A DNA stretch of 64,000 nucleotides from Candidatus Sediminicultor quintus (lineage in GTDB: Bacteria; Atribacterota; Phoenicimicrobiia; Phoenicimicrobiales; Phoenicimicrobiaceae), in assembly GCA_001773955.1 (NCBI GenBank), contig MEYH01000022.1:3606-67605 (forward strand), written 5' to 3'. A program made the translations under genes and the position numbers. Under the pieces are notes generated by a model. That model did no database searches. It was not told where the DNA came from and was given only the letters and a program-made list of their open reading frames with translations. Below are positions 21,056 to 29,023 of the stretch, piece after piece (within the stretch, counting starts at the first letter, position 1; each line of letters opens with the position of its first letter).

Positions 21056-21370
21056 ATGCCCAATTATGAAATTGAAGAAATTTCCAAAATATTTAAAGCT
21101 TTATCTGATCCAACCAGATTTAAAATATTTCTCTTGTTAAATGATAGAGTATCTTGCGTTAATGCTATAGTTAATTTTTTACAAGTATCCCAGCCAGCGG
21201 TATCCCAGCATCTCAAGATTTTGAGGGAAGCCGGCTTGGTTAAGATAGAAAAAAGAGGTTATTGGGTGCATTACTCATCTAATAAGGAGAAGGTAGAAAA
21301 ATTTTTTGAGGATTTTCCAGCCTTACTAAAATTGAAAGGGGTTGAAAAATATGTGCAAAAAAATAAGTAA
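21056..21370 (+). CDS. arsR: ArsR/SmtB family metalloregulator
   Basis: 104 aa; winged HTH LSDPTRFKIFLLL…VSQPAVSQHLKILREAGLV. Confidence 0.85.
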   Translation: MPNYEIEEISKIFKALSDPTRFKIFLLLNDRVSCVNAIVNFLQVSQPAVSQHLKILREAGLVKIEKRGYWVHYSSNKEKVEKFFEDFPALLKLKGVEKYVQKNK

Positions 21371-21515
21371 AGAAAGATGTGAACATCCGGAAAGACTTAA
21401 GGGTAAACCGGGGAAATGCACTTCTGAACAGATAAAAAATTGTCACGGTGATATTTCCGAAAAAAATCATCCATGCGCATGTGTTTCGGGAAAAAAGTCG
21501 GACAAGTCCATTTAA
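21351..21515 (+). CDS. Small 54-aa Cys/His-rich protein, a putative metal-binding peptide
   Basis: ORF MCKKISKERCEHPERLKGKPGKCTSEQIKNCHGDISEKNHPCACVSGKKSDKSI found by manual translation. It overlaps the arsR stop and is absent from the >=60-aa ORF track. Confidence 0.35.
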   Translation: MCKKISKERCEHPERLKGKPGKCTSEQIKNCHGDISEKNHPCACVSGKKSDKSI

Positions 21516-21560
21516 ATAAATAAAAAATTGCTCAAAGTAATTTGATAAGGGAGAACAAAT

Positions 21561-22040
21561 ATGTATGACTATGTTTTGTATCTATTGGCGGGCATATTTC
21601 TGGTGATTTCATTTAAAAGAGATAAAAAGAAAACTAAAATGGCTTTAAAAAAAGCCTGGAAGTCATTCGAAAATATACTTCCACAATTTTTAACTATTTT
21701 AGCTTTTTCAGGTATGGTTTTAGCCCTGCTAAGTCCTGATGTTATATCCCGCCTTTTAGGCCAGAAAGCTGGTTGGCAGGGCATGATTATTGCCTCAATA
21801 ATTGGGTCAATAACACTGATACCAGCCTTTATAGCTTTTCCTATTGCTGCTATGCTCCTTAAAAATGGAGCTGGTTTCGCGCAGATAGCAGTATTTGTAA
21901 GCACACTGATGATGGTTGGAATAGTCACACTGCCACTGGAAATTAAATGTTTCGGTAAAAAGATTTCCATAATGAGGAACATGTTTGCTTATCTGTTTTC
22001 CTTTATGGTAGCTTTAGTAATAGGGGTGGTGCTAGGATGA
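21561..22040 (+). CDS. Permease subunit 1 of a two-component membrane permease; part of a split permease
   Basis: 159-aa multi-TM protein; its stop overlaps the next start (ATGA coupling). Confidence 0.5.
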   Translation: MYDYVLYLLAGIFLVISFKRDKKKTKMALKKAWKSFENILPQFLTILAFSGMVLALLSPDVISRLLGQKAGWQGMIIASIIGSITLIPAFIAFPIAAMLLKNGAGFAQIAVFVSTLMMVGIVTLPLEIKCFGKKISIMRNMFAYLFSFMVALVIGVVLG

Positions 22041-22573
22041 AAATAATTTTCAAAAGATATTTAGGGTTTATAATTATTTTGGTATTGAATATCATATTGT
22101 TTATTATTGACAGAAAAAATGGGTTAAGTTCAATAACCATTTTCGGATCAATTATTTTTCAAATGGCGAAAATACTACCACCCATATTTGTGCTTTTAGG
22201 ACTTATGGATGTGTGGATTCCCAGGGAAACAATGGAAAAATTTATGGGAGAGAAATCGGGCTTACTCGGAATTCTAATTGCTTTTTTCTTTGGGTCATTT
22301 GCAGCAGGCCCTCTTTATGCTGCTTTCCCCATTGCCATAATTTTAATGAAAAAGGGTGCAAAATTTCTTAATATTCTTATTTTTATAGGTGCTTGGTCAA
22401 CTACCAAAGTTCCCATGTTCCTATTTGAAACAGCCTCCTTGGGATGGAGATTTTCTGTTATAAGGCTTATTATGAGTATATTCGGAGTAATTACTATAGG
22501 CTACGCGATAGAATTATTGATAAGTAAAAAAGAAAAGGAAGACCTATATAATAAGGTAAGATTAATGCAGTGA
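22037..22573 (+). CDS. Permease subunit 2
   Basis: 178-aa multi-TM protein translationally coupled to subunit 1. Confidence 0.5.
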   Translation: MKIIFKRYLGFIIILVLNIILFIIDRKNGLSSITIFGSIIFQMAKILPPIFVLLGLMDVWIPRETMEKFMGEKSGLLGILIAFFFGSFAAGPLYAAFPIAIILMKKGAKFLNILIFIGAWSTTKVPMFLFETASLGWRFSVIRLIMSIFGVITIGYAIELLISKKEKEDLYNKVRLMQ

Positions 22574-22737
22574 TTGATATACAAAAATAAAATAACAGAA
22601 GGCATTAAAGGATTAAAAATAAGAGGGGAATTTTCTTATTTTATTTAAAGAGCAGTTTTTAATTATTTCAACTATTAATAGAGCGACTAATTGAATGGCG
22701 GGATAAAAAACAAGTAAATCTATAGGAGGTAAGGATA

Positions 22738-23043
22738 ATGCAAGCATTTAATCTTAAAACAATGAAGTCACATCCCTATGAGGAGAGGGATAAGAATGTC
22801 TTTTATAAAGCTAAGGAGTTTAAAGCAAGAATTATCGAACTTCCACCCGGTGGAGAGATGCCAACCTGTGAAATGCTTTCTTATGTAATCTTTTATGTTG
22901 TTAAAGGAACAGCAGAAGCAAAAGTTAATCAAGAAAAAATTATCCTTAAAGAAGGACAGTGTCTAATTACTGAACCAGCAATACTATCTATGAAAACACA
23001 AGATGGCGTCAAGATGATGGGTATACAGATAATGAAAACTTAA
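22738..23043 (+). CDS. Cupin domain protein
   Basis: 101 aa of small-barrel composition with a GGAGG RBS. Confidence 0.55.
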   Translation: MQAFNLKTMKSHPYEERDKNVFYKAKEFKARIIELPPGGEMPTCEMLSYVIFYVVKGTAEAKVNQEKIILKEGQCLITEPAILSMKTQDGVKMMGIQIMKT

Positions 23044-26524: not shown

Positions 26525-26935
26525 ATGCAAAATAAGAAAAAATATATTTATATCATAATTTTTTTAGTACTTTTAGCTATCGTCTTTGGTTTTAAAAAGG
26601 TATCTAACAACACTGAAGCTACTTTAACTCAAGAAGGTGTAACCGCCGATGAGATTAAAGTAACCTTTGTAGAGCTTGGCTCGGTTGGCTGTATTCCTTG
26701 CGATAATATGCAGCCAATTATGAAAGAAATTGAAGAAGAATACAAAGGACAGGTAAAAGTAGTTTTTCACGATGTGAAGACGGCAGAAGGCAAGCCTTAT
26801 ATTAAGGAATTTGGTATCAGGGCAATCCCAACTCAGGTCTTTCTGGATAAAGATGGAAATGAATATTTTAGGCATCTAGGGTTTTTTGCCAAAGATGAAT
26901 TAATTAAAGTTCTTAAAACGCAAGGAGTCAATTAA
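26525..26935 (+). CDS. Membrane-anchored thioredoxin-like thiol:disulfide oxidoreductase (TlpA/ResA-like)
   Basis: Signal anchor and a GCIPC CxxC motif in a thioredoxin fold. Confidence 0.7.
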   Translation: MQNKKKYIYIIIFLVLLAIVFGFKKVSNNTEATLTQEGVTADEIKVTFVELGSVGCIPCDNMQPIMKEIEEEYKGQVKVVFHDVKTAEGKPYIKEFGIRAIPTQVFLDKDGNEYFRHLGFFAKDELIKVLKTQGVN

Positions 26936-27636
26936 TGATAAGAACTATTTTTGAATGGTTGTCTAATTCTCTCCAATTGAATCCAATTATTGCCTTAACC
27001 GCTTCTTTTATCTGGGGAATATTCAGTATATTGTTAAGCCCCTGCCATTTAGCCAGTATCCCTTTAATTGTTGCATTTATCGGAGAGCAAGGCAAGGTAT
27101 CAACCAAAAGAGCTTTTTGGTTAGCAACCTCTTTTTCTATGGGTATTTTAACAACTATTACCGCTATAGGTCTGATTACTGGACTTTTAGGCCGTATGCT
27201 GGGTGATATCGGCTCTTATGGGAATTATTTCGTGGCAATAATTTTTTTCGTTATGGGCTTTCATCTTTTAGAAATCATTCAATTGCCTTTTCTGGGAAAA
27301 ACTAATCAACCAGCTTTCCGGAAAAAAGGACTTTGGGCTGCTTTTGGATTAGGTCTTATTTTTGGTATCGCCCTTGGTCCCTGTACCTTTGCCTATATGG
27401 CACCGATGCTGGGTATTGTGTTTAAACTGTCAGCCGCACAATTTTTCTATGGAGCTGCACTTCTTTTTGCTTATGGTATTGGTCATTGTTCGGTAATAGT
27501 TTTTGCGGGAACCTCTGCCGGAATGGTTCAAAAGTATCTAAATTGGAATGAAAGATCTAAAGGTGCAGTATTAGTTAAAAAAATATGTGGTATTTTAGTG
27601 ATTTTAGGTGGAATATATTTAATTTGGAGTATCTGA
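26935..27636 (+). CDS. ccdA: Cytochrome c biogenesis protein CcdA (DsbD transmembrane domain)
   Basis: 233 aa; conserved Cys in TM1 ([11 protein letters not shown]) and TM4 (GPCTFAY). Confidence 0.8.
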
Positions 27637-27655
27637 AAGGAGATCAGTATTAATT

Positions 27656-28819
27656 ATGGTTAAAGAAAAAAGAGAGGGCTTAAGTGTTTTTGAAAAATAT
27701 CTAACGGTATGGGTCTTGTTATGTATTGTTATTGGAATTATTTTCGGTAAAATGATTCCCGGGGTAGCAAAATATCTGGATGGATTAGCCATTTATATTG
27801 GTGAAGCACCAGTAGTTTCTATCCCGATTGCAGTTTGTCTATTTTTTATGATGTATCCGATTATGGTAAAGATTGACTTCGGGGAAGTGTTAAAAGCAGG
27901 AAAATCCATTAAGCCGGTTGGACTGACTTTATTCGCTAACTGGGCAATAAAACCTTTTACTATGTACGCTATATCTATCTTTTTTTTAGGTTTTCTTTTT
28001 AAAAATTTTATTGGGAGTGAGGCAATGGATTTAGTAAAACTTCCACCTGGAGCAGATTGGGCAGTGGGAACAATTCATGGGGCTGGAACTGTAGTGATAA
28101 GCAATGGGATGAAATTACTCGAAATCCCTCTGTGGAGAAGTTTTCTTGCTGGAAATATTTTATTAGGCATTGCCCCCTGTACAGCAATGGTCTTGGTTTG
28201 GGGGTTCTTGGCAAAAGGCAACGATGGACATACGCTGGTTATGGTAGCAATAAATTCTCTAACTATGCTTTTTCTTTATGGACCGCTTGGTGGATTCTTA
28301 CTTGGCGTAGGAAAATTACCAGTTCCCTGGCAAGCACTACTACTTTCTATCAGCATTTATGTTGCCTTACCCTTGGTGGCAGGTTATTTTTCCAGAAAAT
28401 GGATAATAAAGGCAAAGGGCGAAAAATGGTTTAAAGAGAATTTTTTACATTTACTTACACCGGTATCTATTGTTGCTCTATTATTTACTCTAATCCTACT
28501 TTTTTCCTTTAAAGGTGAGGTTATTTTAACTAAACCTTTAACCATACTATGGATAGCTATTCCACTTTTTATTCAAACTAACCTTATCTTCTTTCTCACC
28601 TATGGATTAGCAAAACTATTGAAACTTAATTATGAAGATGCTGCTCCTTCTGCGCTGGTAGGAGCAAGTAATCATTTCGAGGTAGCCATAGCAACCGCTA
28701 TAATGGTTTTTGGTATATCTTCGGGTGCTGCCTTAGCAACAGTAGTAGGAGTTTTAATCGAAGTTCCGGTAATGTTGATGCTTGTTTCAGTTTGTAAAAG
28801 AACACGAAATTTCTTTTAA
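27656..28819 (+). CDS. acr3: ACR3 family arsenite efflux transporter
   Basis: N-terminus [23 protein letters not shown] matches the ACR3 signature; 10 TM helices. Confidence 0.85.
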
Positions 28820-28849
28820 AATCTTAAAATGATTTAGATATTTGATAGT

Positions 28850-28927
28850 TGGTCGGGGCGAGAGGATTTGAACCTCCGACCTCTTGGTCCCGAACCAAGC
28901 GCGCTTACCAAACTGCGCTACGCCCCG
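28850..28927 (-). tRNA. tRNA-Pro (anticodon CGG)
   Basis: Reverse complement CGGGGCGTAGCGCAGTTTGGTAAGCGCGCTTGGTTCGGGACCAAGAGGTCGGAGGTTCAAATCCTCTCGCCCCGACCA folds as a cloverleaf with anticodon loop TTCGGGA and an encoded CCA. Confidence 0.85.
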
Positions 28928-29023
28928 TCATGTATAATAAACATTAATTAATTATTCTAATTTAATAAATTATATCATAATATTATAAATTGTGGGTTAT
29001 AATTTTTATTCAATTTAAAAGGG

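Follow-up and report, generated by a model that had tools for sequence, protein, structure and literature searches.

A thioredoxin-CcdA module in an arsenic resistance locus beside tRNA-Pro of Candidatus Sediminicultor quintus

Arsenic resistance genes that end at a tRNA gene raise the question of whether they form an acquired genomic island or belong to the resident chromosome, and thiol-redox genes in their midst raise a second one, namely what such genes contribute to resistance. We examined both questions in a 64,000-nucleotide stretch of Candidatus Sediminicultor quintus, a member of the Atribacterota (assembly GCA_001773955.1, contig MEYH01000022.1, positions 3,606 to 67,605; hereafter the window). 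Two gene strings headed by ArsR-family regulators follow each other in tandem in the region 21056-28930, and the last gene, encoding the arsenite permease ACR3, ends 30 nt from tRNA-Pro(CGG). The open reading frame (ORF) list together with Pfam and NCBIfam scans placed all listed genes from arsR1 up to this tRNA on the + strand (Table 1). We conclude that the region is probably a native chromosomal locus for metalloid and metal detoxification, whose second gene string, operon 2, would be an arsenite-derepressed instance of a widespread module that joins ars genes to a thiol relay. The gene identities given in an earlier note, which had been made from the letters of this DNA, were borne out by these scans. 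Its description of two ArsR-headed operons on the same strand ending at tRNA-Pro also stands, except that they are arranged in tandem and not back to back, and its account of operon 1 left out a small cupin gene.

The ars block and its tRNA-Pro flank

The earlier note had taken the 7.9-kb block for a horizontally acquired genomic island integrated at the 3' end of tRNA-Pro. In favor of this idea, the block abuts that 3' end, its gene strand is opposite to that of its neighbours, and the content downstream of tRNA-Pro differs among Atribacterota (L008, L030, L019, L015, L007 and L018; L-numbers denote compared loci). For comparison we took a single genome of each species and examined the surroundings of BirA in it, adding several contigs that encode close CcdA homologues. 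The left flank, with genes for YhhN, an acyltransferase and a hydrolase, is conserved in L027, L030, L041 and L098, and the right flank is conserved as tRNA-Pro, BioY, BirA and a 136-aa protein. Between the same flanks, the core ArsP-Trx3-...-Trx-CcdA-ACR3 (Trx, thioredoxin; Trx3, Thioredoxin_3-type mini-thioredoxin) was found in L007, L009, L015, L018, L030, L031, L033 and L037, that is, in at least eight other Atribacterota lineages. The amino-acid identities of block and flank run parallel, with 89% for BirA and 85% for CcdA in L007, and 65% and 57%, respectively, in L018. A core that occupies the same interval across many species and diverges in step with its flanks argues against integration of the block at this tRNA.

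The position of inserted DNA in the relatives is also informative. Between tRNA-Pro and ACR3 lie a radical-SAM gene in L015 and L007, an insertion sequence (IS) in L007, ArsM in L018 and a restriction-modification (R-M) system in L030, and because the inserted DNA lies there, the ars cluster is the older resident. In L008, an R-M system and TauE follow the tRNA up to the contig end; L019 carries CDF and arsR-arsD-arsA at the tRNA-Pro site, and L010 is without ACR3, CcdA and the anchored thioredoxin. The view of the tRNA-Pro flank as a point of insertion therefore has some truth in it, as this is a variable site where relatives hold R-M systems, IS, radical-SAM genes, ArsM or wholly different content.

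The block has a GC content of 0.29-0.375, like its flanks, and a strand-symmetric tetranucleotide distance of z <= 1.3, with a correlation of 0.97-0.98. Its distance to the rest of the window in relative synonymous codon usage (RSCU) is 0.218, against 0.231 +/- 0.054 for a null of equal-size gene runs, 46% of which were at least as different. By GC, tetranucleotides and codon usage the block is thus native, and not the compositionally foreign DNA expected of an island. We found no integrase or transposase in 18-31 kb, in agreement with the earlier note, which had seen no integrase, and no tRNA-derived direct repeat (att site) of at least 14 nt in the window or in the loci of relatives. Given the conserved flanks and core, the native composition and the lack of an integrase or att repeat, we regard the ars cluster as a long-standing resident of a plasticity zone that adjoins tRNA-Pro. 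The ars block is not a recently acquired island but a resident of a variable locus, and its integration as a whole at the tRNA is very unlikely. The earlier note had itself named the presence of the block at this site in relatives, together with native composition, as an outcome that would speak against its view, and this is largely what was observed. The case is also a caution that adjacency to a tRNA is, on its own, insufficient for calling islands.

The real compositional outliers of the window are found at 47000-53000, a TRAP-transporter / NagA-NagB-SIS / GntR sugar-amine cluster, and at 56000-60200, which encodes a 1226-aa SNF2-family helicase with DUF3670. These two regions have a GC of 0.40-0.45 and tetranucleotide z values that reach 2.9; they also deviate most in codon usage, and they look more island-like than the ars block. 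Split or truncated genes were seen in some relatives, including ArsM and CcdA in L018 (11950-12805 and 14148-14746), ArsP and ACR3 in L027 (6412-7585 and 10716-12072) and the radical-SAM gene in L007 (11923-13085), which suggests either assembly errors or, in certain lineages, the decay of parts of the locus. Assembly GCA_036722815.1 (L001, 4657-5024) is near-identical, but its ACR3 match begins about 280 nt after ccdA, compared with 19 nt in the window, with the first ~36 residues missing; this displacement could reflect either a small insertion or an artefact of the assembly.

The thioredoxin-CcdA module across loci

Operon 2 contains three redox genes, for a mini-thioredoxin, a membrane-anchored thioredoxin and a CcdA/DsbD-type membrane protein. 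The mini-thioredoxin has the site CPKC and is similar to the solved structure of MTH895 (1ILO, E 1.7e-16), and we infer that it serves as a cytoplasmic electron donor. The anchored thioredoxin, which the earlier note had called TlpA-like, has a C-I-P-C active site; its relatives share the motif C-[IV]-P-C, and 36 of 41 sequences have the anchor. It gave no Redoxin or AhpC-TSA match, its best matches being PF00085 and Thioredoxin_2, and scored 22 bits on the ResA model (cut-off 170), which makes it a classical thioredoxin and not a member of the TlpA/ResA group. It would face outward. The start of ccdA overlaps the stop of this thioredoxin gene by 1 nt. CcdA itself has six hydrophobic segments and the P-C motifs SPC37 and GPC150; Cys37 and Cys150 are invariant down to 55% identity, and four Cys are invariant in the CcdA subfamily. 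An identical CcdA protein is encoded in a metagenome-assembled genome deposited as "Actinobacteria bacterium RBG_13_35_12". The close CcdA homologues are all from Atribacterota, the first homologue search having returned only relatives of at least 78% identity, and sequence searches of the PDB with CcdA and with the DGC protein of the same operon gave no match for either.

A metagenome scan with the conserved CcdA motifs yielded 578 relatives. We searched the 80 highest-ranking of these (58-94% identity, locus GC 31-70%) by tblastn with the window proteins; the counts that follow cover only loci with enough flank. The anchored thioredoxin lies directly upstream of CcdA in 58/64 loci and the mini-thioredoxin within 3 kb of it in 17/22, while arsR and ArsP are upstream in 19/24 and 17/28 loci, respectively. 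ACR3 was found within 5 kb of CcdA in 11 of 18 loci, DGC within 3 kb in 7 of 22, and CDF within 5 kb in none of the 18 loci outside the close relatives. Unequivocal arsenic markers (ACR3, ArsM, ArsC or ArsA/D) are carried by 20 of the 31 loci of at least 9 kb, and nine of the other 11 carry ArsP together with Trx3. ArsC of the low-molecular-weight protein tyrosine phosphatase (LMW-PTP) type occurs inside the module in 6/80 loci, for example between Trx3 and ACR3 in L046. On these counts, Trx3, Trx and CcdA are the invariant core, which ArsR and ArsP usually accompany. ACR3 is often added to it, the lack of ArsC is the norm, and only CDF is peculiar, to some Atribacterota.

These results bear on the earlier note's opinion that a relay wired directly to ACR3 and a CDF pump is an unusual combination. 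Relay and ACR3 together form a widespread conserved module, seen across the 80 loci and already described bioinformatically in 2010 (PMC2963123), and the closest partners of the relay are ArsP and the mini-thioredoxin rather than ACR3 or CDF; it is the CDF linkage that did prove unusual. The slot between the two thioredoxin genes varies among Atribacterota and close relatives. It is empty in L028, L033, L041 and others, and holds DGC only in L007 and L045, CDF only in L030, L031, L035 and L039, CDF with AhpC in L027, and both DGC and CDF in the window and its near-identical assemblies L001-L003. Only CDF, the DGC gene and operon 1 are lineage-specific additions, and the CDF linkage looks like an insertion into a variable slot. 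In the distant locus L059 (8716-9972), CcdA is followed by a 418-aa membrane protein with 12 Cys that resembles a VKOR-DsbA-type fusion, which sets an oxidizing thiol-disulfide enzyme beside the reducing relay.

Proposed working of operon 2 and competing explanations

The GELCVCELV segment of ArsR2 aligns with GELCVCDLC of Escherichia coli ArsR, the Cys pair of the R773/E. coli type, and ArsR2 is thus predicted to sense As(III) and Sb(III). An operator-like 12-4-12 inverted repeat overlaps the -10 box of the candidate arsR2 promoter. Operon 2 has intergenic gaps of -1 to 51 nt, a GGAGG-like ribosome-binding site at every gene and no terminator-like hairpin within its intergenic spacers, a layout that is consistent with a single transcript. 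The Rfam scan of the window found no riboswitch or leader upstream of either operon, the tRNA being its sole match. Promoter-like sites are as numerous in the window as in shuffled sequence, and the candidate promoters are consensus matches. We propose that As(III) or Sb(III) would bind to the CVC site of ArsR2 and release it from the operator, whereupon the whole operon 2 string could be transcribed.

Three of the products would then act in export. Acr3 transport requires the Cys of the GxAPCTAMV helix and the Glu of NHFE, as known from Corynebacterium glutamicum and Alkaliphilus metalliredigens. The window's ACR3 has both motifs, as GIAPCTAMV (Cys175) and NHFE (SNHFEVAIA in translation), and would export As(III) and Sb(III). 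The ArsP permease has a C-S-C pair (residues 71 and 73) within a hydrophobic segment. For ArsP, which transports MAs(III), Chen and colleagues reportedly described a vicinal or near-vicinal intramembrane Cys pair in 2015. We predict that the window's permease, with its intramembrane C-S-C, exports trivalent (organo)arsenicals such as methyl and aryl arsenicals, on the basis of the function of its family (PMC6205960) and of the frequent co-occurrence of ArsM. It is linked to the mini-thioredoxin and may belong to the second of the ArsP subgroups. The CDF protein has HxxxD in both TM2 (H47NFSD) and TM5 (H152LFSD) and a His-rich N-terminus. It is predicted to be an efflux protein for Zn, Cd or Co of the Zn type (ZitB/CzcD-like), and would add such export in this lineage; its exact substrate is not fixed by its family, since it scored 229 on the ZitB equivalog model and missed the cut-off of 408.

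The remaining members of operon 2 are thiol proteins. The mini-thioredoxin, CcdA and the outward anchored thioredoxin would together make up a complete relay of dithiol electrons from the cytoplasm to the outside, which would keep the cysteines of envelope proteins and transporters reduced and free under stress from thiol-reactive metalloids. The DGC protein has four conserved core Cys, an N-terminal C-x-C, a C-terminal C-x-C-x-x-C tail and a flavodoxin-like fold. Its Cys-rich termini are reminiscent of ArsD, an arsenic chaperone, and no sequence or fold link between DGC and ArsD was found. DGC is not ars-specific, since its plasmid homologues in Klebsiella and haloarchaea have neighbours other than ars genes. 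A role of DGC as ArsF was rejected, as it gave zero NCBIfam matches.

Several known systems resemble parts of this arrangement. The operons surveyed by Castillo and Saier in 2010, who named the three redox genes as ars determinants and found arsC in 7/8 operons (PMC2963123), carry these genes with arsR, arsP and acr3 as the window does, and those authors also proposed, from sequence as here, that the thioredoxin-like protein donates electrons to CcdA. In contrast to those operons, the window and most metagenomic loci are without arsC, and the window adds CDF and DGC. ArsP of Campylobacter jejuni is an efflux permease for MAs(III) and Rox(III) (PMC6205960). The C. jejuni-type ars operon is, like operon 2, ArsR-controlled and carries both an ArsP_1-family permease and ACR3. 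It is not known to have thioredoxin or CcdA partners. Shewanella putrefaciens has an arsEFG system, reportedly described by Chen, Zhang & Rosen in 2019, with whose arsE and arsG the mini-thioredoxin and CcdA of the window would be parallel. This likeness lies in the NCBIfam names, by which an arsenic operon combines a thioredoxin-like protein of the MTH895/ArsE family with ArsG, a membrane protein like DsbD_2/CcdA. Unlike arsEFG, the window has a CcdA with 52.7 bits on the ArsG model (cut-off 200), an extra outward-anchored thioredoxin, and no ArsF counterpart that NCBIfam could find.

CcdA also supplies extracytoplasmic thioredoxins in the CcdA-ResA/StoA pathway of Bacillus subtilis and the CcdA-Etrx-MsrAB pathway of Streptococcus pneumoniae. 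The window shares with these a six-helix CcdA with two P-C cysteines that is coupled to a membrane-anchored CxxC thioredoxin; it differs in that this thioredoxin matches PF00085 and not TlpA/ResA (Redoxin), and in that the module lies inside an ars operon. A further relative is found on plasmid pSCD of Sulfuricella denitrificans, where a 54%-identical CcdA overlaps an upstream gene for a 136-aa thioredoxin among ArsM, ArsC, CDF and RND genes. Unlike the window's genes, this pair is plasmid-borne and betaproteobacterial, with RND pumps in place of ACR3 and ArsP.

The main competitor to an electron relay is that the CcdA-like protein is an ArsG-like carrier of trivalent arsenicals, and that the two thioredoxin-like proteins are dithiol chaperones, one cytosolic and one outer, which deliver As(III) to its cysteine pair and take it up from there, so that metalloid and not electrons would be relayed. 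ArsG (NF040495) is indeed the top NCBIfam match of CcdA, with a full-length alignment, MTH895/ArsE is NCBI's name for the family of the mini-thioredoxin, and the module is often without ACR3, with ArsP alone or with no other exporter; the four invariant Cys of the CcdA subfamily would also suit a carrier. The ArsG score is far under its cut-off, however, and the architecture is that of a canonical CcdA, in which TM1 and TM4 each hold a P-C motif and translation is coupled to that of an anchored CxxC thioredoxin, so we consider a carrier rather unlikely. With about the same low probability, ArsP, the mini-thioredoxin, CcdA and the anchored thioredoxin could form an uncharacterized export system that passes trivalent arsenicals dithiol-to-dithiol via the CcdA Cys pair. 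This four-part unit occurs at 31% to 70% GC, often without ACR3 or ArsC, and if it does pass arsenicals, the DGC protein and the CEHPE...CHG peptide of operon 1 would be further dedicated metalloid chaperones.

Less likely again is the suggestion, in line with Castillo and Saier 2010, that the redox genes serve arsenate reduction in the cytoplasm by feeding a thioredoxin-dependent ArsC encoded elsewhere in the genome. The frequency of arsC in their survey (7/8 such operons; PMC2963123) and the LMW-PTP-type ArsC in 6/80 of our loci, such as L046, speak for it. The earlier note had already stated that ArsC is lacking here, and tblastn at E<=1e-3 with E. coli ArsC (glutaredoxin type, Grx) and the Sulfuricella plasmid ArsC (LMW-PTP type) gave no match in 64 kb; ArsC is also absent from every Atribacterota locus compared and from 74/80 metagenomic loci. 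Moreover, the anchored thioredoxin and CcdA would point outward, whereas ArsC is cytoplasmic, and the module's habitat is anoxic, where arsenite dominates. Finally, database sources label the CcdA protein a cytochrome c biogenesis protein, which would fit a housekeeping pair for cytochrome c or for general reduction of envelope disulfides that is adjacent to ars genes by chance. We consider this highly improbable, since the same-strand linkage to arsR, ArsP, Trx3 and ACR3 recurs across loci of 31-70% GC and the redox pair on a betaproteobacterial metal-resistance plasmid, and neighbouring genes of the operon overlap or are separated by short gaps.

Certain points nevertheless weigh against the electron relay in an arsenite-responsive operon, which we prefer. 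ArsG, although below its cut-off, is the top NCBIfam match of CcdA, so a transport role of CcdA is possible. No acceptor for the outward thioredoxin, such as an apocytochrome or Msr, is encoded near thioredoxin-ccdA, and an anaerobe has no obvious need for extra extracytoplasmic reducing power under arsenite. Control of a Zn-type CDF by an ArsR of the As(III) type is not readily explained either, barring an internal promoter or sensing of Cd or Zn by ArsR2. Substrate specificity differs between subgroups of the ArsP family (PMC6205960), and the module frequencies are approximate because the 80 loci are the best-scoring of 578 and have no taxonomy attached.

Atribacterota are among the dominant carriers of arsenic genes in anoxic arsenic-enriched sediments, and in marker-gene surveys of arsenic-rich sediments acr3, arsP and arsM were both present and expressed in this phylum (PMC10060404). 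The locus shows what resistance hardware its members possess, and the thioredoxin/CcdA genes, probably acting as a relay, are a regular part of the ars clusters of anaerobes. The cluster is of a known, previously noted kind, to which CDF, DGC and operon 1 have been added in this lineage. The practical value is modest, and lies in having delimited a group of genes, trx3-trx-ccdA and optionally DGC, that may contribute to tolerance to arsenite or methylarsenite.

Operon 1 and the 61-nt direct repeats

Operon 1 is best explained as a second accessory efflux unit, in which ArsR1 and a cupin accompany a small, predicted metal-binding Cys/His peptide and a permease made as a heterodimer of half-size proteins. 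The only Cys of ArsR1 is Cys34 (in VSCVNAI), and it has no CVC arsenite site. The start of permease B overlaps the end of permease A by 4 nt, the two halves share 29% identity, and they score 28 and 50.5 bits on PF03773 (cut-off 32.3). Both halves were found with the cupin in L062 and L098, and without it in L059. The split permease thus recurs near the CcdA module in the unrelated lineages L059 and L062 as well as in the close relative L098, from which we conclude that operons 1 and 2 are functionally associated beyond this genome.

The 54-aa peptide of operon 1, with the motif CEHPExLKGKPxxCxxEQIxxCHG...HPC in the window, is one of a protein family with 131 cluster representatives (E<=1e-3), in which C10, C23, C31 and H32 are invariant. 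The family consensus is C-E-H-P-E-K-L-K-G-K-P-x-E-C-x-P-E-Q-I-x-E-C-H-G-D-x4-H-P-C, some members consist of two tandem copies of the motif, and no Pfam or NCBIfam model matches the family. We predict that the peptide binds metals or metalloids. A clean 129-nt in-frame indel has removed it from the close relative L098. The alternative that this Cys-rich ORF is the frameshifted tail of ArsR1 was rejected because of identical frames in the independent assembly L002 and by the existence of a peptide family of its own.

Table 1. Coordinates of the features of the ars locus in the window.
Feature	Position	Strand	Remarks
61-nt direct repeat, copy 1, left of operon 1	20909..20969		core AAAATCCTCTTTT ~40 nt upstream of TTGACA box
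Promoter-like TTGACA-17-TACACT with 13-4-13 imperfect inverted repeat	20985..21042	+	candidate promoter/operator of arsR1, consensus match only
arsR1, ArsR/SmtB regulator	21056..21370	+	HTH_5 E 4e-15; HTH_metalloreg 90.5 bits
Cys/His-rich small protein, 54 aa	21351..21515	+	ATG at 21351 (ORF from 21342)
Half-size ArsP_1-type permease A	21561..22040	+	4 hydrophobic segments
Half-size ArsP_1-type permease B	22037..22573	+	
Small cupin, operon 1	22738..23043	+	Cupin_2 25.5 bits, cut-off 27.2 narrowly missed
61-nt direct repeat, copy 2, right of operon 1, upstream of arsR2	23224..23284		80% identical to copy 1
Promoter-like TTGACA-18-TATATT overlapping 12-4-12 inverted repeat (92% complementary)	23310..23346	+	candidate promoter/operator of arsR2
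arsR2	23368..23700	+	alternative start 23329; ArsR with ELCVCEL
Full ArsP_1 (formerly DUF318; PF03773) permease	23726..24778	+	264.4 bits, E 1.5e-78
MTH895/ArsE-family mini-thioredoxin (Thioredoxin_3)	24792..25034	+	TIGR00412 113.3 bits vs cut-off 62
DGC-domain Cys-rich protein	25081..25512	+	alternative start 25015
CDF cation exporter	25564..26481	+	TIGR01297 280 bits
Thioredoxin with N-terminal membrane anchor	26525..26935	+	PF00085 36.5 bits
CcdA/DsbD-type membrane protein	26935..27636	+	PF02683 DsbD_TM 53.8 bits vs cut-off 27.1
ACR3 arsenite efflux permease	27656..28819	+	TIGR00832 380.7 bits vs cut-off 282.8, model 1-327 of 327
tRNA-Pro(CGG)	28850..28927	-	68.3 bits; 3' end toward ACR3 end

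We also found a 61-nt direct repeat on either side of operon 1, which has two matches in the 64-kb window, where none is expected by chance, and none elsewhere in it. A structured RNA or terminator was rejected as its identity: copy 1 folds (z = -3.1) and copy 2 does not (z = +1.1), so the repeat has no conserved RNA structure. This intergenic element, with the core TTTATTCTACAAAAnAAGnnAAAATCCTCTTTT placed about 40 nt upstream of a TTGACA box, is conserved across Atribacterota genomes, with positions at 3795 and 5918 in L098, 4841 and 6279 in L027, 5235 and 5886 in L041, 3079 in L030, 2464 (minus strand) in L009 and 253 in L001. The element may be a recombination or a regulatory site. In L098, L027 and L041 its pairs bracket different gene cassettes, which suggests that cassettes have been gained by recombination at a conserved sequence upstream of promoters.

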